Below are positions 25,568 through 46,401 of a stretch of DNA of 48,298 nt, one piece after another. Origin of the DNA: a virus. The stretch lies in the IMG/VR virus record IMGVR_UViG_3300037762_000149; one strand, written 5' to 3'. Made by a program: the position numbers and the translations under genes. Numbering within the stretch: the stretch's first letter is position 1; each line of letters starts with the position of its first letter. The notes beneath the pieces are model-generated. The model was not told the origin of the DNA and ran no database searches. It saw only the letters and a program-made list of their open reading frames with translations.

Positions 25568-27013
25568 ATGGCACGCACCAGCAAGACGAAGATCGGTGAC
25601 AGCGGTGAGTCGAGCGATCGCATGATGCGTGCGGCGGCCAGCGGTGCCGAAGCCGTGTCGCAGGCGAGAGGACAGCTTCTCGGTCAGTATCGAGAGGGTG
25701 CCGAGAACGCGAGGAACCTCAGCCAGACCGCCTCCAGCCTCGTGCAGCAGCACGAAGACCGGAAGACGCAGAAGGAGCAGTTCGCGAGCAAGATGGAGCT
25801 CGAGTCCGCGCAGATGGCCCAGCAGGAGTCGCAGTTCAGCCGTGGTCAAGCGCAGCAGGAGTCACAGTTCAGCCGTGGCCTACAGCAGCGGGAGAGCGAG
25901 ACCGAGCTCGAGGCGGCGAAGGCCGGGTTAGAACCCAACCAAGGCGGTCAGGGCGAAGGCGGCCAGGGCGGCGCGATGGCCGGCGCGCAGGCTGGCGCTG
26001 AGGGTGGAGCTCGCGCTGCTCAGCTCGAAGCCGAGATGGCGAAAGGCCAGGGCCAGCCGACACTTGGCCCACTCGATCCCGAGTCGCAGCAACGACTCAG
26101 CGACACGACGACGCAGCCGCTGGAGATGGACAGCCAGGGACGCTGGCGTCCGACCGCCGCGCGCAAGTCCGCTCAGGAGAGAGCACAGAAGCGTGAGGAC
26201 TTCCAGGCCGACACGGAGCGCATCCGTGCGATGGCTTACGAGCAGCAAGTGTCCGTGGCGGCGCAGAAGGCATTGATGGCCGGCGACATGGAAGCCTACG
26301 AGGAGCACGCGCAGATCCTCGCCAACGTGCCGAACGACCGGCAGAAGCAATACGACAGACTGATGACTGGTAAGGTTCCAGAGTCCGATTGGTCGGATAT
26401 CGCCAAGGAGGCGGCTGACAACCCAGAGCCCGGCCTCGCCGAAGACATCAAGGCTCATAACTTCTCACCGCGCGTGCAGGCGTTCATGCGGGCCCAGGTC
26501 GGCAAAGGTTCGCTGAAGGCGATCGTCGGCAGTCTTGGTGATACAACGAAGCTCAAGATCGACTGGACCAACCCGGTGATGGTGCAGTTCCAACAGATGG
26601 TGCAGACCGACGCTGAGTTCATGCGCGCGAACCCGGCGCTCGGCCAGCTCGGGTTCATCAAGAGCACCGACGACAAGATGCGCTTCCTCAACGTGACGGC
26701 GGCGGCCAAGATCATGATGGGCATGGGCCGCGCTCCGAGGGGAAAAGCCTCCGGAGGGATGGTGCCGGCGACGGAGGGTGGCGGCGGGGCTTCAGCCGGT
26801 GGTGCACCGGCTGAGTTGCCTCCTGGGAGCACGCAGGTGCCGGGCCGGTCCGAGGGCGCAGCGGCCGTCCGAGGCGCCAGGGCGGGCGGTGCGACGCCGC
26901 AGCAGGCGTTGCAGGCTGGTCAGCGGGTGGCGCCAACTGGACGTCCGACGCCTGAGGAGGAGGGCTACGGCAGCGAGTTGAGGCGGCGAGCAGGTCAGCG
27001 CTACCCACGATGA
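25568..27013 (+). CDS. Internal virion protein candidate (low-complexity, Q/E/G/A-rich)
   Basis: 481 aa from ATG 25568, just after the upstream stop. Contains a 33-bp tandem duplication. ATGA coupling to the giant gene. Confidence 0.65.
   Translation: MARTSKTKIGDSGESSDRMMRAAASGAEAVSQARGQLLGQYREGAENARNLSQTASSLVQQHEDRKTQKEQFASKMELESAQMAQQESQFSRGQAQQESQFSRGLQQRESETELEAAKAGLEPNQGGQGEGGQGGAMAGAQAGAEGGARAAQLEAEMAKGQGQPTLGPLDPESQQRLSDTTTQPLEMDSQGRWRPTAARKSAQERAQKREDFQADTERIRAMAYEQQVSVAAQKALMAGDMEAYEEHAQILANVPNDRQKQYDRLMTGKVPESDWSDIAKEAADNPEPGLAEDIKAHNFSPRVQAFMRAQVGKGSLKAIVGSLGDTTKLKIDWTNPVMVQFQQMVQTDAEFMRANPALGQLGFIKSTDDKMRFLNVTAAAKIMMGMGRAPRGKASGGMVPATEGGGGASAGGAPAELPPGSTQVPGRSEGAAAVRGARAGGATPQQALQAGQRVAPTGRPTPEEEGYGSELRRRAGQRYPR
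25820..25878 (+). repeat. 33-bp tandem duplication inside CDS
   Basis: cagcaggagtc[g/a]cagttcagccgtgg occurs at 25820-25845 and 25853-25878, encoding QQESQFSRG twice. Confidence 0.8.
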
Positions 27014-30000
27014 GCGGCCAAGCCCCACAGTTTCTGGCGCCCGAGACCGACTACCTGCTCGAACGGAAGAAGGCGGCGATCGGGTCAGCGATCACGGCGT
27101 CGAGCGGTGGCGATCCGCTTGTCGACCCGCCCGCGTTCGGCTACCCGATGTCGATGCAGGTGGAGGTCGAACGCCGGCTGACGCTGGAGCTCGACCGCAA
27201 CCAGAAGGTCAACGCGGTCTTCTCGGATCCGAACAGCGGCTGGGGCGACTTCCAGTCGTTCATGGACGGCGTCTTCGACAAATACAAAGCGCAGAACGAT
27301 GACCAAGTCATCAAGGTGCCTAAGGACGAGCAGGAAGCCATCAAGCAGATGCAGCAGATGCGCCCTGTGCAGGTGGACCCGAACGAGCTCGCCAACATCA
27401 AGCAGATGGTGGTGCAGAAGCTGATCCCTTCACTCAAGGCCGCCGATCCGCGTTTCGACTTCTGGAGCGATCCGCGCACGAAGAACTACGCGGACTGGCT
27501 GAACCGCGAATCTGGCGCCGGGACCGCTGGCTTCATGCAGAGCGGTGAGCAGGAAGCCTCGATCCCAAACGAGGTCTTTGGCATCGATACACACATCCCA
27601 GGTCTTGGTCGTGGGGCTGTAGCAGCGTGGCAGGGGATCGAGGGCATTGGGTCAGCGGCGACATCGGTCGTGCATGGACTCTGGGATCTCGGTCGCCAGT
27701 CGATCAACGCGATGGGCGGCCCGGACATCGGGCCCAGCTATCCGACGAACTACATCGAGACCGAGGACGGCCAGCTCGTTTCCAACGGAGGGAAGGCGCC
27801 GTCGATCATGGACGGGATCGTGATGACCTGGGCCTACGCGACGAACCAGAACATCGAGAAGTTTGCTGCGCAGGCAGGACGCGCCCAGGAGTGGGAGCTG
27901 GCGAACCGCGCGGGCCTTGGCGGGATCGCCACCTCCGTCAGTCGTCTCGGTGGCGAGCTTGTTGGCATGGCGCCGGGGTTCGGTGCCGCAGCAAAGCTCG
28001 GCGAGATGACGCTCGGCAAGCTGACGCAGAAGGGTCTGCAGTCGCTCGGCACGTTGCGGCTGGCGAAGGGAGCGCAGCAGAGCGATCGCGCCTTGAAGAT
28101 CATCGCCGCGATGGGGAAGGGCATCGGGCAGGCGAGCGGCATGGCGGCCTACGAGTCAGCGACCCAGGGCCGGGTGGAGGGCTACGGGGCCAGCTATCTG
28201 CACGGTTTGATGATGGCGCCGGTGCTGATGACGCTCGGCGCTTTGGGCAAGAAGACTGAGTGGTTTGCCGCGAACAGGATGGGCATGCCGGGAGCGGCGT
28301 CTCGTGCGATCGCTGGCGCGATGGAAGGTGTGGGCTTCGGCGCGATCGAGACGACGATCCCTGGCTTGCTGCCGTCTGCGTGGGGCTTCATCCGCGACCC
28401 GAACCAGTCGACCTGGGAAGCCTACGCGAAGAATATGCTCGCCTTCTCCATGGTGAAGATGGGGACAGGCCACACGGCGATCGCGTCACCGGAGCAGATG
28501 CAGATCCGCCGCGGGATCGGGCGCGCGTCGTTCGCCGAGAAGGTGGCTCGTGGTGAGGCGACGCCGGAGGAGATCAGCAAGGCACCGATCGCAGACGAGG
28601 CCAAGCTCCGCGATCTCGGCGAGGCGTCAATGCGCTCGCGTGAAGCTCAGACCGTTGGGGAGCGGTCGGCAGCGACGAAGCGGCAGCGCGAGATCGAGTC
28701 GGAGATGGACGTCGAAGAGTTCGGGCAACGACCACCGGCTGAGAAGGAAGTCGAGCAGGCGATGGAGGATGGTGGCGTCGAGAAGCTCTCGCGTGAGAGC
28801 GCCGAGCGCTCCAAGAAGTGGGAGAGTATCGTCTCGGAGACGAAGGAGCTGATCGCCAAGCAGCGTGATCCAGAGAAGCGGCTCACCGACGTCGAGCGCA
28901 AGCGGCTGATCGAGCTGATGGACATCACAAGCCGTGAGGCGCGCAAGGACGTGCTCGAGGGCCACCGGCGAATCCAGGAACACGCTCGAGAGCAGAGCGA
29001 GCAGGAGATGGAACGGTCACGTGAGGTGATCGAGGCCGGGGACGTCGCTGAAGCACTGCGTAGTGGCCGGCAGGTGACGGACATCCGCGCCGAGCGTACG
29101 AAGAAACTGGCCGAGATGGGGATCACGATCCCGGAGCGCAAGGAGCTCGTCGAGCAGCGGGCAAAGGAGGCGGAGCCGGGCGGCCAGGACCCCGAGATCG
29201 CGGCCATGGCGAAAAAGCTGGGGGTCTCCTACGAGGATATGCTGAAGGAGATGGGGGAAGAAGCGCCTACTCCGGCTTCACTTAAGCAAAACGTTCCACG
29301 TGAAACTATCGTTTCTGGCACTCCACACGACGTGATTGAGCCTGTGGAGATCGCTGATCTCGCCGCCCGCGTCGGAGACACCCGCACGCCAGCCGGCGCG
29401 CGAGCCGGGCCGCAGTCGCTGCAGGCGCAGCCGACGCAGCAGATCGAGGCGACACCTGGCACCGAGCAGGTGATGGCCCGCGACATCTACTCCGAGATGG
29501 AAGGGCGGCCGGGCAGCAAGGGCTTCCGCATCCCGCTCACCAGCATCCGCGTCGGCGGCGAAGCGCCTGACGTTGTGCGTGTGCCGATCCGTGGCGGGAA
29601 GATCGGCGGCAGGAACGTGCTCGGCGTCTTCAAGGCGTTCGAGAACCTGATCCGCACGAAGGAGGGACGAGATCTCGCCGTAGCCGCGCATGAGTGGTCG
29701 CATGCGATGCAGCGGCATACGATCAGCGACGCTGGTGGCAAAGACTTCATCTCTAAGTCCAAAGCGCAAGTTGAATCAGCGCTCAGCGGTCCTGATGGAC
29801 CAGCCATCGGCTTCGAGATGCGAGAGACGCTCAAGGACTACCCTGGCAGCGAAAACATGCCGAAGTGGTTGCAGTGGGCTGAGACGTGGGCCGAGTGGCA
29901 TGCTCGCAACCTGCTTGGTGAAGTCGGTCTCGACAAGAAGCTGCCGGCGATCTCGAGTTACATGCGGCAGTGGTTGGCTTCTCCGCAGCAAGCTGCGTTG

Positions 30001-32712
30001 CGCAACCAGTATGGCCGCATCCAGCAGATGCTCAACCGCTACAACGCTCAGGGCTCACTTGGCCGCTTGCGCCAGAGTCGGGTCAGCGGAGCTGCGCCAC
30101 GGACCGAGACCGAGAAGAAGACCAAGCCTGGACTCCTCCGTAGGGCACTCACCGCTCTGAACAAGTCGATGCTTGATGATGCGGCCGAGCTCAAGGAGTC
30201 GCAGGACAAGTGGCTTGCTGCCGCTGGTCGCAAGCCGGAAGACGTGTCAATCACCGAAGATCCGGCTCGCATGTTCGATGCGCTCCGGATGACCAGCGAC
30301 AAGACGGTGGAGCACTACGTCAACCGCGGCATCCGGCTTCCAGACGGGACGAAGGTGCCCGGCCTCAAATCGGTCATGGATGCGGTCGAAGGTCGCACCG
30401 AAGACTTCCAGGACTACGTCGTCGCTGTGCGCTCGCTCGAGCTCTACAAGAAGGGCAAGGAAGTCCAGCTACCCATTCAGGACTATGTGGAGAGCATCAA
30501 GCAGCTCTCCGCCAAGAACCCGGACTTCGTCGACCAACTGCAGAACCTCAAGCGATGGACCGACGCGCTGGTCGACTACGTCGCCGGGGCTGGCAACATC
30601 AGCGTGGAGGATGCGCAACGCATCAAGGACAGCTACGCGGTCTACGTGCCATTCTTCCGCTCGATCGAGGGCCCGGCGCAGCACGGCCAGGGTCGTGGTG
30701 TTGCCGAGCGCGGGACCGGCCTCTCACGCATCAAGGGCAGCACCTACGAGATCAAGGATCCGTTCATCTCGCTGCAGCAGGTCGCGCGCAGCATGGTCGG
30801 CAAGGCGCACCAGAATCAGGTGATGAGCGCCCTGTTCAAGATGGCGATGGGCCAGGAGGCCGGCGGCCTCGCTTCGATCGTCAAGCGCACGAACGTCCCG
30901 ACCGAACATCCTCTCCGTCAGCTCCTCGACGCGATCGAGAAGAAGGTCGAGCTGCCCGGCGACATGCAGCATGAGCTTGAGTCGGTGTTCGACGCGCTGC
31001 GACAAGCCGACGCGCTGAACCTGGAGACGGTGACCACCTTCGCGCAGAAGGTGATCCCGACCGGCGAGCGCAACATCATCGCCTTCACGCCACGGCTCAC
31101 GGAGAGAGAGATCGGTGAGTTGGTCAAGGAAGGCGCGCACCGCCAGACCGTGGAAGCAGCGAACAACAAGCTGCAGTGGCTGGAGGTCGACACGAAGGTC
31201 TACGAGTCGTTGATGGGCATCGACAAGATGCCGCAGCTCCCCGAGGCAATGCAGCCGGTGATGCGATGGCTCCAGGCTCCCCGCGATCTCGTTCGCTTCT
31301 TCGCCACCGGCGTCGCTCCTGGTTTCGTTGCCGCGAACCTTGTCCGTGACGCACTCTCGGCTCCCATCTTCGACCGCCAGGGCAAGTTCAGGCCGTTCGG
31401 TGGCTTCGTAAAGCTGATCCGAGGCGCGATCGAATACCACAGGGACGGCCGGATGCGCGATCTCTACGAAGAGCTCGGCGTGAAGACGTCATCGTTCTGG
31501 ACTGAAGGACGCCAGCGCGCGCTGATCGGTGAGGAGGTTGGCCTCTGGAAGAAGGCGATGGCGACCGCGGACAAGGTGCAGATCTGGTTCGCGCACCCTG
31601 AGAACTACATCCGCATGGCGGAGTTCAAGGACACCTACGAAGCTGCGATCAAGTCAGGCAAGACCGAGATGCAGGCGCGACTGGAGGCGCTCGAGGCCGG
31701 CCGCGAGATCACCGTTAACTTTGCTCGCGCTGGCATCTGGGCTCGCGTGCTGAACCAGACCATCCCCTACTTCAACGCGGGCCTGCAGGGCCAACGCAAG
31801 CTGTGGGGTCAGCTCCTCGCAGGCGGCATCGAGACGAAGGGCGACGAAGCGAAGGCTCGCGTGCAGCGTGGAGCGATCCTGAACGGCATCGCGAACCTCA
31901 CCGTGCCGGCGACGCTGCTGTGGCTGCTGAACAAGGACGAGGAGTGGTATCAGGACCTTCCCGAGTGGAGGAAGGTCGGCTACTTCAACATGAAGATCGG
32001 CGGCGAGATCGTCAGCGTGCCGAAGCCCTTCGAAGCCGGCACCGTGTTCGCCTCGCTGCCCGAGATCATGCTCGACCACATCGCAGGCGAGAACCCTGCC
32101 AGCATGAAGGCGGCGATGCACTCGATCGCCGGGCCCTACCTCGAGGTCGGCAACCTGATCCCAGCGTTCATCAAGCCGATCGCCGAGGTCGCGTTCAACC
32201 AGAACTTCTTCACTGGCAGACCGCTGACCCCCGAGTGGATCGCCAAGTCCAATCCTCCGCAGGAACAAGCGACCTTCTACACGACCGAGGTCGCCAAGGT
32301 GCTGTCGCGAGCGCTGAACGGTCTGCTGACGCCGACGGAGATCGAGGCGTTGGCTGGCGGCTACACGGCCGGGGCGACCACGAAGGCGATGCGGCTGCTC
32401 GATGAGATCTCAGGGCTCAAGGATCATCCAGGCATCACGATGAACCCGTTCCAGCGCTTCACCAGCCAGCAGGAACACGGTCAGAGCTCGTTCGTCGACC
32501 AGCTCTACAGTCTCAGCACGCGGCTCGACCAGAACGAGGAGACGCTGTCGACGCAGGATCTCGGATTGAAGCGCCGGGTCGACACAGCGAAGCGCCAGAT
32601 CAGCGAGCTGCGGAAGCGCTACCGTGCTGGCGCCATCAGTCAGGAGCAGGCCGAGGAGCTGAGCTACAAGCTCGCGCGGCCGCTTGTGGAGCAATCCGAT
32701 CGAGCCAGATAG
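27010..32712 (+). CDS. Giant internal/ejection polyvalent protein with zincin HExxH motif
   Basis: 1900 aa. The N-terminal third has several Gly/Ala-rich hydrophobic segments (LGGIATSVSRLGGELVGMAPGFGAAA, LHGLMMAPVLMTLGALG, GAMEGVGFGAIETTIPGLL). Next comes a charged coiled coil, then AAHEWSHAMQRH (HEWSH at 29689-29703), then a ~900-aa C-terminal region. Confidence 0.85.
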   Translation: MSGQAPQFLAPETDYLLERKKAAIGSAITASSGGDPLVDPPAFGYPMSMQVEVERRLTLELDRNQKVNAVFSDPNSGWGDFQSFMDGVFDKYKAQNDDQVIKVPKDEQEAIKQMQQMRPVQVDPNELANIKQMVVQKLIPSLKAADPRFDFWSDPRTKNYADWLNRESGAGTAGFMQSGEQEASIPNEVFGIDTHIPGLGRGAVAAWQGIEGIGSAATSVVHGLWDLGRQSINAMGGPDIGPSYPTNYIETEDGQLVSNGGKAPSIMDGIVMTWAYATNQNIEKFAAQAGRAQEWELANRAGLGGIATSVSRLGGELVGMAPGFGAAAKLGEMTLGKLTQKGLQSLGTLRLAKGAQQSDRALKIIAAMGKGIGQASGMAAYESATQGRVEGYGASYLHGLMMAPVLMTLGALGKKTEWFAANRMGMPGAASRAIAGAMEGVGFGAIETTIPGLLPSAWGFIRDPNQSTWEAYAKNMLAFSMVKMGTGHTAIASPEQMQIRRGIGRASFAEKVARGEATPEEISKAPIADEAKLRDLGEASMRSREAQTVGERSAATKRQREIESEMDVEEFGQRPPAEKEVEQAMEDGGVEKLSRESAERSKKWESIVSETKELIAKQRDPEKRLTDVERKRLIELMDITSREARKDVLEGHRRIQEHAREQSEQEMERSREVIEAGDVAEALRSGRQVTDIRAERTKKLAEMGITIPERKELVEQRAKEAEPGGQDPEIAAMAKKLGVSYEDMLKEMGEEAPTPASLKQNVPRETIVSGTPHDVIEPVEIADLAARVGDTRTPAGARAGPQSLQAQPTQQIEATPGTEQVMARDIYSEMEGRPGSKGFRIPLTSIRVGGEAPDVVRVPIRGGKIGGRNVLGVFKAFENLIRTKEGRDLAVAAHEWSHAMQRHTISDAGGKDFISKSKAQVESALSGPDGPAIGFEMRETLKDYPGSENMPKWLQWAETWAEWHARNLLGEVGLDKKLPAISSYMRQWLASPQQAALRNQYGRIQQMLNRYNAQGSLGRLRQSRVSGAAPRTETEKKTKPGLLRRALTALNKSMLDDAAELKESQDKWLAAAGRKPEDVSITEDPARMFDALRMTSDKTVEHYVNRGIRLPDGTKVPGLKSVMDAVEGRTEDFQDYVVAVRSLELYKKGKEVQLPIQDYVESIKQLSAKNPDFVDQLQNLKRWTDALVDYVAGAGNISVEDAQRIKDSYAVYVPFFRSIEGPAQHGQGRGVAERGTGLSRIKGSTYEIKDPFISLQQVARSMVGKAHQNQVMSALFKMAMGQEAGGLASIVKRTNVPTEHPLRQLLDAIEKKVELPGDMQHELESVFDALRQADALNLETVTTFAQKVIPTGERNIIAFTPRLTEREIGELVKEGAHRQTVEAANNKLQWLEVDTKVYESLMGIDKMPQLPEAMQPVMRWLQAPRDLVRFFATGVAPGFVAANLVRDALSAPIFDRQGKFRPFGGFVKLIRGAIEYHRDGRMRDLYEELGVKTSSFWTEGRQRALIGEEVGLWKKAMATADKVQIWFAHPENYIRMAEFKDTYEAAIKSGKTEMQARLEALEAGREITVNFARAGIWARVLNQTIPYFNAGLQGQRKLWGQLLAGGIETKGDEAKARVQRGAILNGIANLTVPATLLWLLNKDEEWYQDLPEWRKVGYFNMKIGGEIVSVPKPFEAGTVFASLPEIMLDHIAGENPASMKAAMHSIAGPYLEVGNLIPAFIKPIAEVAFNQNFFTGRPLTPEWIAKSNPPQEQATFYTTEVAKVLSRALNGLLTPTEIEALAGGYTAGATTKAMRLLDEISGLKDHPGITMNPFQRFTSQQEHGQSSFVDQLYSLSTRLDQNEETLSTQDLGLKRRVDTAKRQISELRKRYRAGAISQEQAEELSYKLARPLVEQSDRAR

Positions 32713-34057: not shown

Positions 34058-34498
34058 TCAAGAGCGCTTGATCGGTAACCACTGATCGAGTAGCGCCAAA
34101 TGGCAGTTGGGGCCAAACATCGGGCGAAGAAAGATTCTTGATATTTTTTCCCACGGGATGGAACGTCGATCTCGCGCGAGCTCGGAGGCAACGTCCATCG
34201 GGATCGTGGCGCAAACCTGCCCGCGGGCCCAACAGATGAGGGCTAAGCAGCCAGCTCGATGTGCCTCGGTCATCTCGTTCCACTGGTGAGCTGAAAGCCC
34301 TGGATTGCCACCGACCTTCAACGACGTCGCGTTCACCATCTTCGCTTCGATCAGGATGGCCCGGCCAGCCACCGTGAATCCGATGAAGTCGCACGGCGTC
34401 TGCTGCATCTCCTCGGGGATCTTGTAGAAGCGAGCTACCTGATAGTCCGCAAGCTCGCGGCCAGCCTTGCGGAGAAGGATCTCGAGTCGGTTGCTCAT
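34058..34498 (-). CDS. Holliday-junction resolvase, RecU-like PD-(D/E)xK nuclease
   Basis: 146 aa from ATG 34498 (TGATG junction with the primase-helicase stop). CDFIGF...GRAILIEAKMV, then LSAHQWNEM...GCLALICW. Confidence 0.8.
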   Translation of the reverse strand: MSNRLEILLRKAGRELADYQVARFYKIPEEMQQTPCDFIGFTVAGRAILIEAKMVNATSLKVGGNPGLSAHQWNEMTEAHRAGCLALICWARGQVCATIPMDVASELARDRRSIPWEKISRIFLRPMFGPNCHLALLDQWLPIKRS

Positions 34499-37400
34499 CA
34501 GAAAGGAATGTCGCCTTGAGCGAACATCTCTGCGGCTGAAGCGTCCATCGGCACAAGTGCTGGATCGTCCTTCTTGCCGGTGGTCACGGCAACCGCCCAC
34601 GCCTTGATCGCGTGGTAGCGCTCACGCCACTGCGTCTCGTCGTGCTCAGCCAACCGGATCAGATTGCTAACGAGCTCGCGTCCGCCGTCCGTGAGCTGGT
34701 AGCTGAGGTTGTGGCTGTTAGGCTGGCGAGCCCGTTCGAACACGTGCAAGGCCACCATGCGCGCCAGCCAACTGTGGCCGGCATGAATCTCCTTCCCGGT
34801 CAGGGTGGTGATCTCCGTCGGTCCGAACGGCGTGAGGAACATGCTGAGGATGGAGACCGCGATCTGTGGATCCTCTAGCGACAGGTCCCAGGTCAGCAGG
34901 CGCTCAGCCTCGAAGATCTTGACGACGCACTGCTGGTCACGGCGCTTGGTGCTGTAGAGGTCGTAGCCGCTGGCCCGCCAGAGATGCACGAGCCAGTTGG
35001 CCGCCCAGTCGACGTGCACCGGCCGCACGTGCACGCTGTGAGGATCGTTCTTCGGCTGCGAGAAGGTGAGGTTGGCGATCGCGATCGCGATCCGCATCAG
35101 GCTGTAGCACTTCTCCTCGGAGGTGAAGAGTGGAAGCTGTTGCGACTCGTAGACGCCTTCCCAGTCCTTGCAGTGTTGCTTTGCGAGGTTGAATGAATCC
35201 TCGTCAATGAGCACTTGTTCCGACTCCATCGCCCAGGCGCGCAGGATCAGGGAGCGCGTCATCTCCTTCGTCCAGAACTGCGGGACGACATCGAGCGAGA
35301 ACTGCTCCGGCTTGTCGTTCACGACGACAGCGAAGTCCATGCGCGCAAGGGTCTCGGGGGAGCCGTAGAGCGCACCGAGGTGCTCGCAGTCGAACTCGAA
35401 GATGCGGCGCTTGTTCCGCATCCAGTTGGCGATGGCGACGAGCCGGACGCCAGCCGGCAAGTCGCGGTTGCCGTAGATCTTCACGCCGCTGGCGACCCCG
35501 TCGTCTCGGGCACTCTGCATCCAGCTCATGGGATGCTCGACCGTGTTCTGCACGAGGAAATGGAACTCGTCGAGCATCAACGCCTTGCCGTTGCAGCGCG
35601 GCAACAGCCCAGGCTTCAGCATGCCGTTCTTGTCGGCGCCCATCAGCAAGCCGGCTCTGCTGATGTTGCTCACCGCTGTGTGGTGAATGCCGAGCCCGTG
35701 GAAGTCGAACATCCGACGGAAGGTCAGTGACTTGCCGGTGCGCGTGTCGCCGTAGACGCAGATGTCCAGCCACGCGCGTTGGTTCGCACCCCACAGCTTG
35801 GCGCGCCGCACGGAGTGCATCAGCAGGTCGTGGGCGATCTGGATGTCGCGCCTGCCGTAGATCTTCGTGACGTGGTAGCCAAGGTCTCGAGCTCGACGCT
35901 CCAGGTAGGAGTCAATGTCCTCGACCTTGTTCGTGTAGGCCGGGCACTCCTGCAACAACTCCTGCTGCACCGGCAGCAGGTCCACTTCCATGCGATCGAG
36001 CTGCTGCACTGACGAAGCCAGCATCACGAGCCCGTTACCACGCGCGTTCGGGTAGCAGATTCCTTCGACTTCCATCTCACCGCTCAGGCTTGGAGCATCA
36101 GCAGAGAAGACGTGAAGCGAGCGCTGAGCACTGTCCTCGACCTTCCCTGGCTGCATGCCTCGCCACTCTGAGCCATTGGAGATGTCCATCGGCACCACCT
36201 CGAGACGCGGGCAGGTTCTGGGCTTCTGGATGACGTCCTTGATGATCTTCTCGCTGACGTTCTGCTGCTCCAGCCCGACCGCCAGCTCGCGCTGGTAGTC
36301 CCGCATGTCGACTACTCCGTCGGGGAAGAGCCGCGCGCCTGGGCAGACCGCGCAGGCTGCATGCTGGCCCATCTCGCACTTCATCTCGAACACGTGAGCC
36401 AGCGTGACGTCGTCACGAGCGATGGCCTCCACCTGAACGCGTGTGCGCACGAGCTTGTGCGGCACGCTGAACACCTCGCCGAACGCGACGTCCACGATGA
36501 CGCGGCCGAACTCTGGCAGATCGTCGAGCGGGAAGGCTTTCCAGTCAGTGAAAAGCTCACGGCCGCCGTCGTTGACCCAATCGCGGAAGTCGCCGCCATA
36601 CTTCACCTGCGGATCCACCGGGCACTGCAGAACGGTGACCTTGCAGCCGAGAGACTTGAACAGCGGACCGACCTTGTCGAGCAGGTTGCGCAGCCGCTGT
36701 TCCATCGCTACGCGCGCGTGCGATGGATCCTTGCCCGGCTTGGTCTCGAAGTGGTAGCCGCTGTAGTTGGGGCCCTGGAAGACGTCGTTGTCGTAGCCGA
36801 TGAAGAGTTCGCGCCCGTGCAGTGACCGCGGCACGTCCTTCGGAGCAGGGCAGCTCGTGGCGCCAGCCGTCCACGTGCACACATGGAAGCCCTGCTCGTC
36901 TAGACGAAGGCGGATCAGCGCGGTCATCACGTCGGACTCGCCTTCCAGCAGCAGAACCCGGCTGCCTTCGGCAGCCGGGCGGCTCGGCCAAATGCCAGGG
37001 CCGCCAGTCCCTGCCCCGAACCACATCCACTTGGCCTTGGGGTTGAGAGGGTTCCAGCAGCGGTAGCGTTCGTGTAGCGTGCCGCCCTCGTCGCGGGTCG
37101 GGAAGACGATCCAGCCCTTGATCCACCCCACCTCGAGCTCGGTGATCATGGCCTGGTCGTCGAGCTTGCGATCAGCGAGGATCGCCCTGGCCTGCTCCGC
37201 GTCCTTGTGCTCCCAGAGGTCGACCAGCGCTTGATCGAGCACCTCCTGGGTCATCCGGATCGGCATGACCTTCCTGGAGCGTGCTGGCGTCTTCAGTGCT
37301 GGCAAGGAGACTTGCAGCCGGGCGGCCAGATCCTTGCAGAGATCCCAGGCTTTCTTGCCAGTGCTGCGAGAGAGCCAGTCGAAGACGTCAGCCTTCGTGC

Positions 37401-37605
37401 TGCACTGGTGGCACTTCAGGTAGAGCTGGTGCGTGAAGCTGGCCGAGCCGCTCTTGTCGCCGCAGAGCGGGCAGAGGAAGCCCGCTGTCCAGTCACCCTT
37501 GAGTCTTGTTCCATCACGCTGATGCCTGACGCCATACTCGGCCAAGATCTCGTCTGCTGCCGTAGCGATTGCAGCCTTGACCTTCGTGAACGCGGTGTCG
37601 GCCAT
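34498..37605 (-). CDS. DnaG/T7-gp4-type primase (Zn ribbon plus Toprim) fused to an MCM-family AAA+ helicase
   Basis: 1035 aa. Primase motifs: CPLCGDKSGSASF...KCHQC (Zn ribbon); VLLLEGESDVMTAL and IGYDNDVFQG (Toprim). Internal Cys cluster: CEMGQHAACAVCPG. MCM motifs: GDTRTGKS (Walker A), SRAGLLMG...ALMLDEFH (Walker B), VRLVAIAN (sensor 1), LARMDFAVVV (SRFD-like Arg finger). Confidence 0.9.
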   Translation of the reverse strand: MADTAFTKVKAAIATAADEILAEYGVRHQRDGTRLKGDWTAGFLCPLCGDKSGSASFTHQLYLKCHQCSTKADVFDWLSRSTGKKAWDLCKDLAARLQVSLPALKTPARSRKVMPIRMTQEVLDQALVDLWEHKDAEQARAILADRKLDDQAMITELEVGWIKGWIVFPTRDEGGTLHERYRCWNPLNPKAKWMWFGAGTGGPGIWPSRPAAEGSRVLLLEGESDVMTALIRLRLDEQGFHVCTWTAGATSCPAPKDVPRSLHGRELFIGYDNDVFQGPNYSGYHFETKPGKDPSHARVAMEQRLRNLLDKVGPLFKSLGCKVTVLQCPVDPQVKYGGDFRDWVNDGGRELFTDWKAFPLDDLPEFGRVIVDVAFGEVFSVPHKLVRTRVQVEAIARDDVTLAHVFEMKCEMGQHAACAVCPGARLFPDGVVDMRDYQRELAVGLEQQNVSEKIIKDVIQKPRTCPRLEVVPMDISNGSEWRGMQPGKVEDSAQRSLHVFSADAPSLSGEMEVEGICYPNARGNGLVMLASSVQQLDRMEVDLLPVQQELLQECPAYTNKVEDIDSYLERRARDLGYHVTKIYGRRDIQIAHDLLMHSVRRAKLWGANQRAWLDICVYGDTRTGKSLTFRRMFDFHGLGIHHTAVSNISRAGLLMGADKNGMLKPGLLPRCNGKALMLDEFHFLVQNTVEHPMSWMQSARDDGVASGVKIYGNRDLPAGVRLVAIANWMRNKRRIFEFDCEHLGALYGSPETLARMDFAVVVNDKPEQFSLDVVPQFWTKEMTRSLILRAWAMESEQVLIDEDSFNLAKQHCKDWEGVYESQQLPLFTSEEKCYSLMRIAIAIANLTFSQPKNDPHSVHVRPVHVDWAANWLVHLWRASGYDLYSTKRRDQQCVVKIFEAERLLTWDLSLEDPQIAVSILSMFLTPFGPTEITTLTGKEIHAGHSWLARMVALHVFERARQPNSHNLSYQLTDGGRELVSNLIRLAEHDETQWRERYHAIKAWAVAVTTGKKDDPALVPMDASAAEMFAQGDIPF

Positions 37606-37683: not shown

Positions 37684-38451
37684 CTAGTCGTCGCGATTCT
37701 CGTCCGTGGTTCCGAACCTGCCCTTCGCATGCGCCGCCATCACCGTTGTGTAGATGCCACGCGCAGCTTCCTGCACTTGGGGCGGGACATCTTCGCGCTG
37801 CAGCCACTTCGTTTCCATCACGTGCGTTGTGGATTGCCGGCCCTGGACGATGTCCGTCCTGGTCTTCGTGCTGATGACCAGCGGATGGCTCCACAGCGGG
37901 TCTTGGCTCATGGACCACTGCGTGAGCAGCTTCTTCGCCGCCTTGATGGACGTGCGCTGGAAGCGCATCACCGCCGGGCCGAATGGAGTCAGCACGGTGA
38001 AGTTGTGCGACTCACTACAGGCAGGGGGTCGGCCTCGCTCGTTGTCCCACTGGCTGTGGGGGCATTCCGCACACACGCCGTAGCGTGTGCCTTCCTTGGC
38101 GTCCGGGCTGCGGCACTCCTCGAGCCCCTCGTGCTCTGGCTTGTCCTCCTTTGGGAACAGGGCACGACTCTTGGTGTGGGCGCAGGCCAGCACACGCATG
38201 GGAGGCTGGAATGGCTCCTCGGCGCCAGACAGCCAGAAGAGGCCAGCGCGGGCCCCATCGACTCCCTGCTTCACCTCCTCGGAGCTTCCTTGGAGGAGTT
38301 TCAGCGAGGGGAGGATCAGATCCTCCTGCTCGATCGCCTCGCGGCCGATCAGGTCACCCTTCTGCGCGCCGAGCGCGGTGGGCAGAAGGTCGGAGCCGTT
38401 GAACTCGCTCGGCTGCCACAGCGTGACTTCTTGTTTTTCGTCCTTGGTCAT
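37684..38451 (-). CDS. Hypothetical protein with Cys cluster; possible ssDNA-binding/annealing role by position only
   Basis: 255 aa. ILPSLKLLQGSS...GLFWLSG...ECRSPD...GVCAECPHSQW...PPACSESHNF. It sits between a Gp157-like gene and the primase-helicase. Confidence 0.7.
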   Translation of the reverse strand: MTKDEKQEVTLWQPSEFNGSDLLPTALGAQKGDLIGREAIEQEDLILPSLKLLQGSSEEVKQGVDGARAGLFWLSGAEEPFQPPMRVLACAHTKSRALFPKEDKPEHEGLEECRSPDAKEGTRYGVCAECPHSQWDNERGRPPACSESHNFTVLTPFGPAVMRFQRTSIKAAKKLLTQWSMSQDPLWSHPLVISTKTRTDIVQGRQSTTHVMETKWLQREDVPPQVQEAARGIYTTVMAAHAKGRFGTTDENRDD

Positions 38452-38482: not shown

Positions 38483-38914
38483 CTACTCCTCCGCCAGCCC
38501 TTTCCAACCGGAAACCCGCAGCGATGGCCGCGTGTCCGGCTTGAGGAAGTCGGGGAAGTCGGTGACGTCGTCGCCGGCCTTGAGCTTCTTCTTGACGAGC
38601 TCGAGGACAGCAGGCTTGCTGACGATGGTCTCGACGAAGTCCGAGTCGTCGCCCTCCGTCTCCATCAGCCACTGGCGGATCGCGTCGTAGTTGTCCTTCG
38701 TGACGCTGATGCTGACGGAGGAGACGAGCAGGGGCTTGGTGCCGTCCTCGCGATCGAAGCCCTTGATCTGATGCTCGATCATGTAGTCGACAAGGTCCGC
38801 CTCTCTCTGTCGACGGACCTTGTCAGCCTCATTGCTGAGCGCTTTCTTCTGATCGTAGTCGCGGCGAGCTTCGTAGTAGAGCTCGGTCTTTAGGTTCAGT
38901 TCGTTGGGTTCCAT
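38483..38914 (-). CDS. Acidic coiled-coil protein (Sipho_Gp157-like by architecture)
   Basis: 143 aa from the internal ATG 38914 of track ORF 38483..39127. N-terminal coiled coil ELYYEARRDYDQKKALSNEADKVRRQREADLVDYM. Confidence 0.65.
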   Translation of the reverse strand: MEPNELNLKTELYYEARRDYDQKKALSNEADKVRRQREADLVDYMIEHQIKGFDREDGTKPLLVSSVSISVTKDNYDAIRQWLMETEGDDSDFVETIVSKPAVLELVKKKLKAGDDVTDFPDFLKPDTRPSLRVSGWKGLAEE

Positions 38915-39078
38915 GGATGAGTCGTGAACGGAATCAGGAGCTCCACCAACAAGGAGTGCAGGCGACCGGGGAAGGTGGAGATGTAGGCCCCTATCGCCTG
39001 TTCGAGTGTGCAGAGACAGCGTTCCTTGTCGTCGCGCCACCAAGTGAGAAACTTGTGGATCTCGGGATACTTGTTCAC
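38896..39078 (-). CDS. Hypothetical small protein (lower-GC patch)
   Basis: 60 aa. The GTG start forms a GTGA overlap with the upstream stop. Confidence 0.45.
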   Translation of the reverse strand: MNKYPEIHKFLTWWRDDKERCLCTLEQAIGAYISTFPGRLHSLLVELLIPFTTHPWNPTN

Positions 39079-39329
39079 GCGAGGAGCTGTGAGTGGATTG
39101 AGAATTCGAGGTGTAGCTCAGTTGCAAGAGTGCCGGTTCTCTTCATTGCTTTGATGTAGCTCTGCACTGACTTTCGGCGCTCGAATCGTTCAAGCAGCAA
39201 AAGCCCAAGCTCCGCCGCGACCTTTCCCGAGTTCGTGGAGTGCGTGACGCCAAGGATACCGTGTATCCCTGGCAAGCGATCATAGCAGTAGTAGACGATG
39301 GCAACGTAGGTTGGTTTTGATTTAGTCAT
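39075..39329 (-). CDS. Hypothetical small protein (lower-GC patch)
   Basis: 84 aa with an ATG start. Preceded by a 114-nt intergenic gap. Confidence 0.5.
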   Translation of the reverse strand: MTKSKPTYVAIVYYCYDRLPGIHGILGVTHSTNSGKVAAELGLLLLERFERRKSVQSYIKAMKRTGTLATELHLEFSIHSQLLA

Positions 39330-40960: not shown

Positions 40961-41307
40961 CAGTCTTCATCCTCGATCAAGTGCTTCATGGCTTCCACGG
41001 CCAACTCGATCATGCTACCACAGATCATGCTAAAGTGGTAAGCGGGATCCTTTTTCCCATCAGCGATCAGCTCAAGCTCCAGATTCATCGCCTTCAGCTT
41101 CTCGTGGGCACTGATGAGCTGGGTGGTGTAGATCGGATCGTTGATCGCCCACAGCGCGACCCCTTGCGCGAGGAAGCCGAGCATCGCCTTCATCCCTGCC
41201 GTGCTGAGCTTGACCTCGCCCATGCTGCAGCGGAACGACTCGCGATGGTAGCTGTTCTGGAACCAAGCCTTGAGCTTGGCCTTCGTGGCTTGGTGGTCTT
41301 CCGTCAC
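40960..41307 (-). CDS. Hypothetical protein
   Basis: 115 aa. GTGA overlap with the SNF2 stop. Confidence 0.6.
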   Translation of the reverse strand: MTEDHQATKAKLKAWFQNSYHRESFRCSMGEVKLSTAGMKAMLGFLAQGVALWAINDPIYTTQLISAHEKLKAMNLELELIADGKKDPAYHFSMICGSMIELAVEAMKHLIEDED

Positions 41308-43109
41308 AACGCCTCCATCAGCTCTTCGATCGTCACGGTCTTCAACGCTTGGTTCGCGTCTGCGCCCTTCGCACGCAGCCTGCGGTCGATCATCACCTCG
41401 ATTGTCTTGCGCACGATCGGAATCTGCACATTTACCGTGCCGGTCTGCCCCATGCGATGCGCGCGATCCTCGAACTGCATGTTGATCGCTGGCGACCAGT
41501 CACGCCCGAAGCACAGCACGTCCTGGCATCGGGTCGCGTTCCATCCTTCAGCGATCTTGACCTGAACGATAAGGGCGTGAATCTTCTTCTGCTGGAATGC
41601 TTCAAGCGTCACAGCTCGCTCATGGGCTCCTCTGCCGCCATGCAAGATGCCAGCATCGATCCCGCGATCGAACAGAGCCTTCAGCAGCCAGTCGATCGGA
41701 GCGTTGAATCTCGTGCCGATCATCGGCGCCCCGCCCTGCTTCACAACCGACTCCACTGCTTCCAGTAACCACAGCAGCTTCGGTGCTTCCGGGAAGATCA
41801 GCTCGTTGGGGCGCCCTGGAATCCGCTCGGCATGCTTCAAGATCTCAGGCCCGACCTTCGCCATCACCGGGTCAGGAATGCCACCGATGAACCCCTGGGC
41901 GATCTGCTCGCACCGCAGAGCCTGCTCCACAGCACTCTTGGCCCGCGGATCGAAGATCGTCACAGGCCCCACTCCGTTGGCGTCCACCTGCGTTGCAGTG
42001 GCCAGCTTGCTGAGTTCGATCTTCGCGAACTCCTTCATCGCCTTGTAGAGCTTGAGCAGCGGCCCCTCGAGCTCGAGCTCGGGGTAGGTGTAGACCTTCG
42101 GAGGTAGGTCGATGGCTTCGCTCTTGGTGCGGCGGATCTGCAGGGTGTTCATCACGGCATTCAACTCTGTCAAGTTTTTCGTCCCAACGATCTTCTGCAC
42201 GTCACGCTTACCGAACTTGACTGACTGAATGACTAGATACCGCTTTGCGAAATCGCGATAGCTTGTCCAGGTGCCAGGGCGCACGAGCTCGACCTGGGTG
42301 AACAGGTCATCAGCCATGTTGCGAATCGGGGTTCCCGTGAGGCAGCACACGTAGCGCGCCTTCGCTGCCAAGGGCGAGCACTCGTGCAGCCGCTTGGCCG
42401 TGCGGTTCTTGAGGTAGTGGCTCTCGTCGAACACTACGAACGCACCCTTGCTGAACTCGATCAGCCACGCACGCTGTGCGTCCGTGATGTGGATCAGCAG
42501 GTCGTAGTTGATGATGACTGCTAACCCGGTAGCTGTGGGGCTTTTCGCATGAAGGCCAGCTTCAACGAACTGATCGGCGCGCTTCTTCGCGCTGCCATTG
42601 ATGACGACGGTCCTCCAGCCATCCCCCAACGTCTCCATTATCTCGTTCTGCCAGTTGAACTTGACGCTCACTGGGCAGACGACCAGCAGGTGGGAAGCCT
42701 TGGCTTCATGAACAGCCCATAGAACTGAGCTTGTCTTGCCTAGCCCCATGTCGTCGGCGAGCAGCACGCGGTTGCCCATGTGCTCCATGGCTAGCACGGC
42801 CTGCGATTGATGCTTCCGTGGGCTTCGCGATGTTGGCAGCAAGACCGTGTGTTGAGCCCCGGAGAGCGCGTCGCGTGCGCGCTGCAGCTTCGCGAGCAAT
42901 GAGTCACGCACCTTCGCCGCATCCATCGCCCAGCTCAGCGTCACCGCTGGCGACTGCTTGATACCCAGCACGCTGCTCGGGTAGCACGGCGCCACGTAGC
43001 TACCGTAGGGCATGCGGCGCCAGCCGATCCATTCACTGATCGCCGGCACGACCTGCTTGTTCGTGTCGATGACGAACTGCGTGCCGACGTAGGTGACTAG
43101 GAGGTTCAT
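41304..43109 (-). CDS. SNF2/Rad54-family helicase
   Basis: 601 aa. Motifs: LADDMGLGKT (I), VVFDESHYLKN (II), LTGTPIRN (III), QFEDRAHRMGQ (VI). Confidence 0.9.
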   Translation of the reverse strand: MNLLVTYVGTQFVIDTNKQVVPAISEWIGWRRMPYGSYVAPCYPSSVLGIKQSPAVTLSWAMDAAKVRDSLLAKLQRARDALSGAQHTVLLPTSRSPRKHQSQAVLAMEHMGNRVLLADDMGLGKTSSVLWAVHEAKASHLLVVCPVSVKFNWQNEIMETLGDGWRTVVINGSAKKRADQFVEAGLHAKSPTATGLAVIINYDLLIHITDAQRAWLIEFSKGAFVVFDESHYLKNRTAKRLHECSPLAAKARYVCCLTGTPIRNMADDLFTQVELVRPGTWTSYRDFAKRYLVIQSVKFGKRDVQKIVGTKNLTELNAVMNTLQIRRTKSEAIDLPPKVYTYPELELEGPLLKLYKAMKEFAKIELSKLATATQVDANGVGPVTIFDPRAKSAVEQALRCEQIAQGFIGGIPDPVMAKVGPEILKHAERIPGRPNELIFPEAPKLLWLLEAVESVVKQGGAPMIGTRFNAPIDWLLKALFDRGIDAGILHGGRGAHERAVTLEAFQQKKIHALIVQVKIAEGWNATRCQDVLCFGRDWSPAINMQFEDRAHRMGQTGTVNVQIPIVRKTIEVMIDRRLRAKGADANQALKTVTIEELMEAL

Positions 43110-43890: not shown

Positions 43891-44304
43891 GTGGTCGAAT
43901 GGCGCAAGATCCCTGGCTTCCCGGGCTACGAGGCCAGTGAGGAAGGGCAGATTCGTGCCTCGAATCCTCGCTACAAGCGCGGCTACAGCCCCACGCTCAG
44001 GCCATGGATCGTCGAGCGCCATGGGCGTCAGGCTGCCTGGGTCACGCTCTGCATCGATGGGGAGCGGAAGAAGGCCCTCGTGAATCGCCTCGTCACCCTC
44101 GCCTTCCATGGCCTCCCTCCGGAGGGGAAGAACGACTCGTGCCACATCGATCACAACTCACTGAACAACCGTGCATCCAACCTGCAGTGGGGTTCACGCA
44201 GCGATAATGTTCGTGCGAACTTCGATCGCGAGCAGGAGATCTCTCGCGTCGCTGAGGGGGAGCTCGAGCCGATCGGCGAAGAGTGGCCGGACATGCCATT
44301 CTGA
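43891..44304 (+). CDS. HNH homing-type endonuclease (NUMOD4 plus HNH_3-like)
   Basis: 137 aa with a GTG start. EWRKIPGFPGYEASEEGQIRA, and the HNH core CHIDHNSLNNRASNLQWGSRSDN. It is the only + strand gene inside the leftward arm. Confidence 0.85.
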   Translation: MVEWRKIPGFPGYEASEEGQIRASNPRYKRGYSPTLRPWIVERHGRQAAWVTLCIDGERKKALVNRLVTLAFHGLPPEGKNDSCHIDHNSLNNRASNLQWGSRSDNVRANFDREQEISRVAEGELEPIGEEWPDMPF

Positions 44305-44412: not shown

Positions 44413-44715
44413 CTAGCTGCGCGGCAAGCCTTGCTGGCGCGTCTTGGCGTTGAACTCCAGACACCAGCGCAGCGTCTCATGATCGCGGAGGCACCGGCGC
44501 ACCACGCGAAGCGTCGCTGCGACGCTCCGCGGGGTTGGCAGCGGCAACCGTCGCGCCTCGAGCTCTCGCTCCAGGCGCCCTAGCAGCTCATCCAAGCTGC
44601 CAATGATCGACGTCAGCGGCACCGAGTCAGCGTGGGGCTTGAGCGTCTGAGCTTCGATCCGATCGTCAAGCCGTTCGATCGCGCGCAGGGCGCGGAGGCC
44701 GAAGGGGAGCCTCAC
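44413..44715 (-). CDS. Hypothetical protein
   Basis: 100 aa. GTGA overlap with the DUF932 stop. Confidence 0.55.
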   Translation of the reverse strand: MRLPFGLRALRAIERLDDRIEAQTLKPHADSVPLTSIIGSLDELLGRLERELEARRLPLPTPRSVAATLRVVRRCLRDHETLRWCLEFNAKTRQQGLPRS

Positions 44716-45785: not shown

Positions 45786-45864
45786 GAGTGAACGTCTCCA
45801 AGGGTTTCGGCCGTTGCTGCGGCCTTCATCAGGCACGCGAAGTAGCGTGCGACCCGGCGGAGGG

Positions 45865-46398
<534 letters not shown>

Positions 46399-46401
46399 GA
46401 C

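Follow-up and report, generated by a model that had tools for sequence, protein, structure and literature searches.

A putative DnaG-type primase/MCM helicase encoded by a 48-kb tailed-phage genome and by a large family of related phages

MCM is the replicative motor of archaea and eukaryotes, and its 3'-5' polarity is established. In the papers that we searched, MCM proteins of bacterial viruses are discussed through one case, BcMCM, in which the motor is fused to an archaeo-eukaryotic primase (AEP) and which reportedly moves 3'-5'. BcMCM has been reported as an active helicase (PMC2715239) and presented as a primase-fused phage MCM (PMC2715239, PMC3273815); the combination of MCM and AEP is also known from bacterial mobile elements (PMC5862659). 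Passages of Kazlauskas et al. 2016 describe P4 gp-alpha as a 3'-5' helicase with a winged-helix origin binder that uses the host polymerase (PMC4889955). Here, we analysed the gene at 34498-37605 on the minus strand of the IMG/VR virus record IMGVR_UViG_3300037762_000149, a stretch of 48,298 nucleotides that is called the window throughout. We conclude with good confidence that this gene encodes the replicative primase-helicase, that is, a one-polypeptide primosome, of a tailed phage of about 48 kb; the searches detected no gene for a DNA polymerase in this phage. Both the fusion, which extends through a very large phage family, and the module in which the gene lies are conserved.

The gene starts with ATG, ends with a stop codon at 34498-34500 and encodes a protein of 1035 amino acids (P0001), as given by the list of open reading frames (ORFs) and by translation. 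The ORF had been picked out, with no strand given, in a first-pass annotation made from the sequence, which described it as an unusual chimera of a bacterial-type primase and an MCM helicase. The analysis places the ORF on the minus strand, and all the motif strings cited in that annotation were located in the protein. The predicted domains and the positions of these strings are as follows (aa, amino acid; AF2, AlphaFold2).

37297-37491, minus strand: DnaG-type zinc ribbon (aa 39-103, CPLC...CHQC; from the family profile and from Pfam in relatives)
36526-37257, minus strand: primase RNA-polymerase domain with Toprim fold (aa 117-360; from profile, AF2 and Foldseek)
35986-36504, minus strand: MCM N-terminal tier, or N-tier (aa 368-540; zinc site and OB-fold beta strands, from VIA-align and AF2)
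34942-35985, minus strand: MCM AAA+ motor (aa 541-888; from profile, Pfam in relatives, Foldseek and VIA-align)
34546-34941, minus strand: C-terminal helical region (aa 889-1020) with a winged helix at about aa 913-971
34501-34545, minus strand: flexible acidic C-terminal tail (aa 1021-1035, ending in ...AQGDIPF; from the drop in AF2 confidence and from homologue endings)
Primase motifs of P0001: CPLC, aa 45-48; CHQC, aa 65-68; LLLEGESD, aa 218-225; YDNDVFQG, aa 271-278
Internal cysteine cluster of P0001: CEMGQHAACAVCPG, aa 410-423
Motor motifs of P0001: GDTRTGKS, aa 619-626; SRAGLLMG, aa 649-656; ALMLDEFH, aa 675-682; VRLVAIAN, aa 720-727; LARMDFAVVV, aa 753-762

P0001 has diverged too far to be recognised on its own by curated models, and the domain calls needed family profiles. 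As a single query it had no match in the PDB (phmmer) and, in Pfam, no match to PF00493 (MCM) at E ≤ 1 and a weak match to the DnaG zinc ribbon (E = 0.023). In the PHROGs profiles, aa 17-274 matched a family named 'DNA primase', and aa 512-884 matched a family that has no name. When a family profile of 108 sequences was compared with the PDB, all 60 matches listed were DnaG primases or MCM proteins. Residue conservation was scored in 48 diverse homologues, and 32 relatives formed the close set.

The N-terminal 360 residues are, as judged from profiles and models, a complete DnaG-type primase, in which a zinc ribbon serves template recognition and the RNA-polymerase/Toprim domain, with conserved acidic metal ligands, serves catalysis. 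The family profile matched the Zn domain of the B. stearothermophilus primase (1d0q, E = 1.6e-4) and, over the zinc ribbon, the RNA-polymerase domain and Toprim together, Aquifex DnaG (2au3, E = 1.4e-28). Pfam Zn_ribbon_DnaG was found in 29 of the 32 close members and in 30 of the 48 diverse ones; Toprim_2 was found in 24/48, and matches to Toprim_2/3/4 occur among the relatives. In the zinc ribbon, C45, C65 and C68 are nearly invariant and position 48 is His (34/48) or Cys (11/48), so that the site is of the CHC2 or the C4 type. The RNA-polymerase/Toprim domain carries a 'PKY(L)NS'-like motif at K192, EGESD at 221-225, DND at 272-274 and GGDFRDW at 337-343. R146, R182 and K192 are conserved in the 48 members and correspond to the DnaG PKY(L)NS motif in the 2au3 alignment, and E221/G222/E223, D272 and D339/D342 are invariant or nearly so.

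The AF2 model of aa 1-375 reached a pLDDT of 95.2 and a pTM of 0.91. Its top 37 Foldseek matches (E ≤ 0.001) were all DnaG-type primases, among them Aquifex DnaG, T4 gp61, T7 gp4, Twinkle, the DnaG proteins of E. coli, S. aureus and M. tuberculosis, and 1d0q_A; no unrelated structure scored better than E = 0.03. The AF2 models contain no C-terminal DnaB-binding domain, and Toprim joins the MCM N-tier at aa ~360-368. For lack of this domain P0001 is placed in the fused phage primase branch and is not regarded as a cellular DnaG orthologue; on the NCBIfam model TIGR01391 (dnaG) it scored 22 bits against a cut-off of 284. In T7 gp4 and P4 gp-alpha, as in P0001, covalent fusion stands in for the DnaB-binding domain.

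The primase function is predicted from sequence and model, and it is conceivable that P0001 is a helicase or initiator only, that its primase part, like that of metazoan Twinkle, is a degenerate scaffold, and that host DnaG does the priming. The C-terminal tail, if it mimics the tip of SSB (single-stranded DNA-binding protein), might in theory bring in host DnaG, a protein that binds the SSB C-terminus (PMC5872125). However, the zinc ligands, the K192 motif and E221, E223, D272, D339 and D342 are kept in very divergent members, which argues for selection on catalysis, and the alignment to Aquifex DnaG takes in every part of the primase. We regard a degenerate primase as improbable.

The remainder of the protein up to the tail (aa 368-1020) is, on family profiles and predicted structure, an MCM-family helicase, in which a zinc/OB N-tier is followed by the AAA+ tier with its catalytic motifs and then by a winged helix at the C-terminal end. 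The first-pass annotation had put the internal cysteine cluster where the MCM N-terminal zinc motif would be, and it does lie there: C410, C418, C421 and C465 make up the N-tier zinc site, are kept in 46-47 of the 48 members and stand beside OB-fold strands visible in the AF2 secondary structure. Most of MCM subdomain A has no counterpart in P0001. Because Toprim runs directly into the N-tier, the primase takes the place of this subdomain.

The AF2 model of aa 361-1035 (the C-half model) had a mean pLDDT of 94.6 and a pTM of 0.91. VIA-align superposed it on SsoMCM (6mii_B) with Z 28.6 over 442 residues, model positions 8-523 falling on chain positions 64-604, and this alignment takes in both the zinc/OB N-tier and the AAA+ tier; the C-tier of MCM4 (6sko_4) was aligned to model positions 181-528 with Z 26.5 and an rmsd of 3.0. 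All of the top 50 Foldseek matches of this model were MCM chains from archaea or eukaryotes, the best of them at E = 1e-19. The family profile matched the Sso/Pf MCM hexamer 4r7y at E = 1e-21, and the other non-primase matches among the 60 listed were all MCM. Pfam MCM (PF00493) was found in 6 of 32 close relatives and in 36 of 48 diverse relatives (best E = 4.2e-14).

The motor contains Walker A (GDTRTGKS, K625), Walker B (LDEF, D679/E680), sensor 1 (AIAN, N727), the Arg finger (ARMDF, R755/D757) and a lid. K625, E680, N727 and R755 are present in 48/48 members, D757 in 46/48, and D679 is Asp in 39/48 and Glu in 9/48; R700 and R721 are also invariant or nearly so. These motifs line up column by column with those of archaeal-virus MCMs and of 4r7y. 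The model shows a pre-sensor-1 hairpin at aa 704-717, whose tip K709 is kept in 46/48, and a helix-2-insert hairpin at aa ~655-665 (nucleotides ~35611-35643) that is ~4-7 residues shorter than in relatives. At the lid column that is the candidate for sensor 2, 30 of the 48 relatives have Arg; P0001 has Cys833 (aa 832-833 at nucleotides ~35107-35112), and the adjoining K832 is conserved in its clade. The winged helix appears in the AF2 model as three helices and a beta hairpin at model positions 553-611. A VIA alignment to the Asgard MCM 8x7u_C extends to model position 604 and chain position 668, into the C-terminal domain of that protein, and a profile alignment to full-length SsoMCM (4fdg) reaches the 4fdg C-terminus.

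A different assignment would put the ATPase half in another clade (SF3/D5-P4, DUF3987, DUF927/Cch or DnaB/RecA) and take its MCM-like motifs as superficial. The failure of P0001 alone to match Pfam MCM or any PDB entry would suit this assignment, as would the fact that most phage SF6 helicases are assigned to DUF3987 in passages of Kazlauskas et al. 2016 (PMC4889955). But MCM proteins are the only AAA+ chains among the listed matches of the family profile, Pfam finds MCM in three quarters of the diverse relatives and DUF3987 (PF13148) in 0/48 at E ≤ 0.001, and the best structural alignment includes the MCM-specific zinc/OB N-tier. In addition, DUF3987 proteins in BFVD matched the model at E = 1e-8 to 1e-10, as against 1e-19 for the MCM chains of the PDB. 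An assignment outside MCM is thus extremely improbable. The DUF3987, SF3/D5 and DnaB identities were rejected on family profiles, Pfam and structure matches. The domain-wise profile and structure check proposed in the first-pass annotation gave DnaG for the N-terminal part and MCM, not D5/SF3 or DnaB, for the C-terminal half; its domain call is borne out by family profiles, by AF2 with Foldseek and by the conserved residues.

We investigated how widespread this architecture is. P0001 has 50 homologues at 34-79% identity, many of which sit on contigs of 46-48 kb. An exhaustive search of metagenomic clusters (50% identity) retrieved 1310 cluster representatives at E ≤ 1e-3, of which 901 also passed E ≤ 1e-10; among the matches listed, most are 900-1050 aa long and aligned in both halves, and the best-scoring, near-full-length ones have the same architecture. 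A related-locus search of a species-genome collection, based on the close-homologue alignment, gave two contigs only, both from metagenome-assembled genomes. Among ~50,000 phage records, tblastn with P0001 found 53. Of these, 36 were Microbacterium phages in which the gene is labelled 'DNA primase/helicase' or 'DNA primase', and the rest were Arthrobacter, Bacillus, Paenibacillus and Weizmannia phages and two uncultured siphoviruses.

Pfam recognised Zn_ribbon_DnaG and/or Toprim together with MCM in Wollypog gp50, Youna2, BSP7 gp45, SV21 and MW202657, and Toprim in Krampus gp47. The only protein with DNA_primase_S (AEP) and MCM in the Pfam-scanned set was BC1863 (BcMCM) of phBC6A51. A hidden Markov model of the N-terminal part matched all 44 non-AEP proteins of the tree described below (cultured phages at E = 1e-50 to 1e-80) and neither of the AEP proteins. 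With the BcMCM motor as the sole query, 58 records were found: 47 DnaG-fused proteins, 4 AEP-fused proteins and 7 archaeal-virus MCMs. The DnaG-MCM fusion is therefore common in sequenced phages, where it is usually labelled only 'DNA primase/helicase', and is not a one-off.

In MW202657.1 (27488-30334, L024) and in the loci L023 and L031, the records read 'DNA directed DNA polymerase' or 'DNA primase small subunit'; these misleading labels sit on proteins that Pfam assigns to Zn_ribbon_DnaG/Toprim and MCM.

The first-pass annotation had seen in the fusion a crossing of two lineages, on the premise that phage MCM goes with AEP and Toprim with DnaB-type helicases. This premise mirrors the literature and not the databases. 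At least 47 cultured phage records (of Microbacterium, Arthrobacter, Bacillus and Weizmannia phages), and Paenibacillus phages besides, have the same architecture, about 900 clusters match at E ≤ 1e-10, and the viral database search that the annotation proposed found the fusion to be common, which on the annotation's own terms counts against the claim as far as databases are concerned. Our check of the literature, which took in Kazlauskas et al. 2016 apart from its Figure 2 and supplementary tables, turned up no explicit description of a DnaG-MCM fusion. Passages of that paper note DnaG fusions to SF6/DUF3987 helicases (PMC4889955), and the Krampus paper names the gene just 'DNA Primase' and does not state its MCM nature (PMC7302621).

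The phylogeny of the AAA+ cores was reconstructed with IQ-TREE (LG+C20+F+G4, careful search) from 316 core columns of 50 proteins. The rows hold a spread of 37 from 198 retrieved proteins, and fragments and all cellular MCMs were left out. The 46 bacterial-phage MCMs were separated from four archaeal-virus MCMs with 100/100 support, a split to be read with caution on account of its long branch. Of the phylogeny proposed in the first-pass annotation, this resolves the part on phage and archaeal-virus MCMs; the cellular MCMs are not in the tree. P0001 lies in a well-supported clade with metagenomic relatives of ~47 kb, and the cultured relatives lie in a separate clade. The two AEP-fused proteins (the BcMCM pair, L021 and L031) fall inside a 31-row clade that is otherwise DnaG-fused (98/93 support). 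This nesting suggests a swap of primase modules; because a tree with all DnaG-fused rows together was not rejected by the AU test (p = 0.228), the replacement of DnaG by AEP is a lead and not a result. It may be that MCM in bacterial viruses chiefly takes the DnaG-fused form, which is possibly also ancestral, and not the AEP-fused form known from B. cereus.

The window itself seems to be a 48-kb tailed-phage genome that is circularly permuted and nearly complete. The nearest complete virus record (G001) has 48,458 nucleotides and is 100% complete by CheckV; its copy of the primase-MCM gene is 100% identical and is divided between the record ends with an overlap. The genes around the primase-MCM gene are listed below, with the number of related loci in which each is kept.

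34058-34600, minus strand: Holliday-junction-resolvase-like gene, directly downstream of the primase-MCM gene (phrog_843, E = 8e-13; 13/14 loci)
37684-38451, minus strand: Pam3 gp34-like gene, directly upstream of the primase-MCM gene (PF23977, E = 1.3e-15; 13/14 loci)
38483-39127, minus strand: Pam3 gp33-like (DUF7307) gene (PF23984, E = 7e-8; position kept in 11/14 loci)
41304-43109, minus strand: helicase of the SNF2 family (SF2), second of the two helicases in the module (SNF2-rel_dom, E = 6e-32; phrog_62, E = 2e-87; 12/14 loci)
44712-46430, minus strand: DUF932/TIGR03299 protein, first in transcription order of the minus-strand arm

The order along this arm is DUF932/TIGR03299, SNF2, small ORFs, gp33-like, gp34-like, primase-MCM and resolvase-like. 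The module from SNF2 to the resolvase is kept, gene by gene, in 11-13 of 14 related loci at 33-68% identity. The listed ORF of the resolvase-like gene overlaps the 3' end of the primase-MCM gene, and for this reason its true start may be further in. Candidate roles for the gp34-like and gp33-like proteins are those of a loader, of an SSB-like protein or of a partner that binds the origin; for the gp34-like protein, the protein atlas yielded no functional lead.

Profile searches found no match to a polymerase or SSB family among the window ORFs scanned. A six-frame search of G001 gave no PolA, PolB, DnaE or SSB, and five further complete genomes of the family gave no PolA, PolB or DnaE. The remark in the first-pass annotation that a DNA polymerase gene is absent thus agrees with the searches of both the window ORFs and G001. 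The replication module that it called unusual partly on this ground is not unusual in this respect: many phages of this size carry a helicase and a primase only and borrow the host polymerase, according to passages of Kazlauskas et al. 2016 (PMC4889955), and the absence is real but ordinary for a phage of ~48 kb.

The neighbouring resolvase and SNF2 helicase, together with a negative origin search, would also fit a gene that serves recombination, repair or counter-defence while the SNF2 helicase or host DnaB drives the fork. Yet primase-helicase fusions are given as a hallmark of the replicative helicases of double-stranded DNA viruses in passages of Kazlauskas et al. 2016 (PMC4889955), no other primase was found in the genome, and the homologues in Microbacterium, Bacillus and Paenibacillus phages adjoin DNA polymerase genes. 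We consider such a non-replicative role very unlikely, and replicative primase-helicase remains our reading of the gene.

The replication arm and its surroundings were scanned for an origin by way of tandem, direct and inverted repeats, and the sole repeat array found there is a coding repeat of the GGC type in the DUF932 gene. At 45919-46086, this gene holds ~21 copies of a 6-nucleotide repeat of the GGC/GCG type, which from its sequence would encode a low-complexity linker rich in Ala and Pro. A promoter scan gave nothing above shuffled expectation, and no tRNA genes were found. The plus-strand arm encodes the large terminase (5083-6816), the portal (10015-12417) and a capsid and adaptor of the SU10 type. 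At the end of this structural arm (27010-32712, plus strand), there is a protein of 1900 aa with an LPD38 'large polyvalent protein' domain at aa 1644-1809, which may be an ejected or virion-associated polyvalent protein. Glycosyltransferase-like and methyltransferase-like genes (2770-3837, 3834-4355 and 7963-9303, all on the plus strand) occupy an unusual place before the terminase and between terminase and portal.

We also examined the C-terminal tail of P0001, in which pLDDT falls to 55 at the last residues (AF2). The ending [VLTI]PF was found in 40 of 49 close full-length homologues, whose last 15 residues hold 3.2 acidic against 0.3 basic residues, and a PF ending recurs in distant subclades (P0062, P0064, P0071, P0073, P0139, P0142, L015 and L019). 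Within the window, 2 of 442 long stop-to-stop frames end in PF; the other one (43891-44304, plus strand, EEWPDMPF) overlaps two minus-strand ORFs in antisense and is perhaps no gene. The C-terminal tip of bacterial SSB, DDDIPF, is a docking peptide for many genome-maintenance proteins (PMC5872125), and the P0001 tail resembles it as an acidic, low-confidence extreme C-terminus ending in hydrophobic-Pro-Phe. It is possible, though doubtful, that the tail recruits host factors that bind the SSB tip. The cultured relatives that encode polymerases have no PF ending. Within the family, no correlation was found between the PF tail and the absence of a polymerase: six complete genomes are without PolA, PolB or DnaE, whether they have the tail or not, which leaves the contrast with the polymerase-encoding cultured phages.

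In T7 gp4, an acidic Phe-terminated C-terminal tail contacts the polymerase. We give about an even chance to the explanation that the [VLTI]PF tail is likewise no SSB-tip mimic but an internal regulatory or partner-binding tail, which would dock on the phage's own primase, winged helix or gp34-like protein, as the acidic Phe-terminated tails of T7 gp4 and gp2.5 do. Three observations favour such an internal tail: the residue before the hydrophobic position is Ala in 17/40 homologues and Asp in 8/40, members without the tail likewise have no polymerase, and many distant relatives end in [DE]F, as T7 does. On the other hand, the last four residues of P0001, DIPF, are exactly those of the E. coli SSB tip, the ending is spread across distant subclades, and no phage polymerase was detected that an internal tail could bind.

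By analogy with MCM, BcMCM and P4 gp-alpha, P0001 would form a hexameric ring around the leading-strand template and would move 3'-5'. The Arg finger R755 would complete the ATP site of the adjacent subunit. Six primase domains, replacing subdomain A, would crown the N-tier face and make RNA primers on the excluded lagging-strand template. In CMG, the N-tier face leads at the fork, and it is there that the excluded lagging-strand template lies. As neither a phage polymerase nor a canonical SSB was detected, the primers would be passed to host Pol III, which would extend them. By analogy with P4 gp-alpha, the winged helix at the C-terminus may have a role in binding origin or duplex DNA. Should the DIPF ending act as a mimic of the SSB tip, the tail would hold host factors that bind this tip, for example clamp-loader chi, at the C-tier face, where the leading-strand template would exit the ring.

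Extended to the whole fork, this scheme would have an MCM-type 3'-5' helicase run a bacterial fork with host Pol III, coupled by the SSB-tip-like tail on the trailing face, and the excluded strand would be primed by the DnaG-type primase on the leading face. We put this forward only tentatively and think it rather less likely than not to hold in full. If true, it would be a natural hybrid replisome that mirrors CMG, with the polymerase behind and the primase in front, built of bacterial parts.

Several points weigh against the reading of the gene as a replicative primase-helicase. We infer the hexamer, the polarity, the primase activity and the use of the host polymerase. P0001 alone has no Pfam MCM match, and the MCM call draws on family profiles and predicted structure. 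The motor may differ in detail from other MCMs, because Cys833 replaces the sensor-2 Arg and the helix-2 insert is short. The genome could encode a polymerase or SSB too divergent for Pfam and PHROG profiles, and no origin-like iterons were found near the gene. With regard to the tail, several polymerase-less members of the family have no PF ending, so that the correlation is incomplete; the likeness was judged on the general bacterial and E. coli SSB tip.

A very large, mostly metagenomic phage family thus joins MCM to a bacterial DnaG-type primase, and it has tractable cultured carriers, for example phages of Microbacterium foliorum and Bacillus subtilis. These could offer a simple system, predicted to be homohexameric, for the cooperation of a 3'-5' MCM ring with a Toprim primase. 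The polymerase-less phages could serve to study how MCM cooperates with bacterial Pol III, and the tail provides a directly testable hypothesis. For annotation, 'DnaG-type primase/MCM helicase' could replace 'DNA primase', 'DNA primase small subunit' and 'DNA directed DNA polymerase'.

The closest studied relative of P0001 is BcMCM (BC1863 of the Bacillus cereus prophage phBC6A51), which likewise has an N-terminal primase followed by an MCM motor, in 1028 aa. The MCM halves of the two are homologous over N-tier and AAA+ (tblastn, E = 6e-19, 26% identity), and both belong to one bacterial-phage MCM lineage apart from the archaeal-virus MCMs (100/100). They differ in the primase, which is archaeo-eukaryotic (DNA_primase_S) in BcMCM and of the DnaG/Toprim type in P0001, and in the polymerase, since phBC6A51 encodes an adjoining PolA whereas none was detected in the phage of P0001. 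The tblastn match (BcMCM, L021:1810-4896; window 34501-36525, minus strand) spans the zinc/OB N-tier, with positions 24-523 of the C-half query. The 2009 abstract on BcMCM says that the typical MCM amino-terminus is missing; because the match includes the zinc/OB N-tier, BcMCM may have an MCM-like N-tier after its primase.

Krampus gp47, Wollypog gp50, BSP7 gp45 and the Youna2 and SV21 proteins have the same architecture as P0001 in 930-1005 aa, at 21-26% identity to it. These homologues are uncharacterised. They form a separate clade in the tree, their genomes encode DnaE-like or PolA polymerases, and they lack the ...PF tail.

Archaeal and eukaryotic MCMs (SsoMCM 6mii, 4r7y) share with P0001 the N-tier zinc and OB elements, the helix-2 insert, the pre-sensor-1 hairpin, sensor 1, the SRFD-type Arg finger and the winged helix. 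P0001 differs from them in its low identity (13-19%), in having a primase for subdomain A and a short helix-2 insert, and in coming from a virus of bacteria; their sensor-2 Arg is not conserved in the P0001 clade. T7 gp4 and Twinkle are primase-helicase fusions with a homologous primase half and are among the top structural matches of the N-terminal part, but their helicase is of the RecA fold (SF4), moves 5'-3' and encircles the lagging-strand template, in contrast to the AAA+ MCM motor of P0001.

The DUF3987 helicases (SF6), described in passages of PMC4889955 as distantly MCM-like and as fused to or standing beside AEP or DnaG primases, fill the same functional slot as P0001. No member of the present family matches them (0/48), and the structural likeness is far weaker than that to true MCM. 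P4 gp-alpha resembles P0001 in its domain order, with a Toprim primase ahead of an AAA+ ring helicase and a winged helix at the C-terminus; its helicase, a member of the SF3/D5 clade, is without a zinc/OB N-tier, whereas that of P0001 is MCM/SF6. The pairing of Toprim with a helicase other than DnaB is already a textbook matter in P4 gp-alpha, a Toprim primase with a 3'-5' AAA+ helicase. The DnaG-primase/MCM proteins are a large, uncharacterised family within the well-known class of viral primase-helicase fusions.

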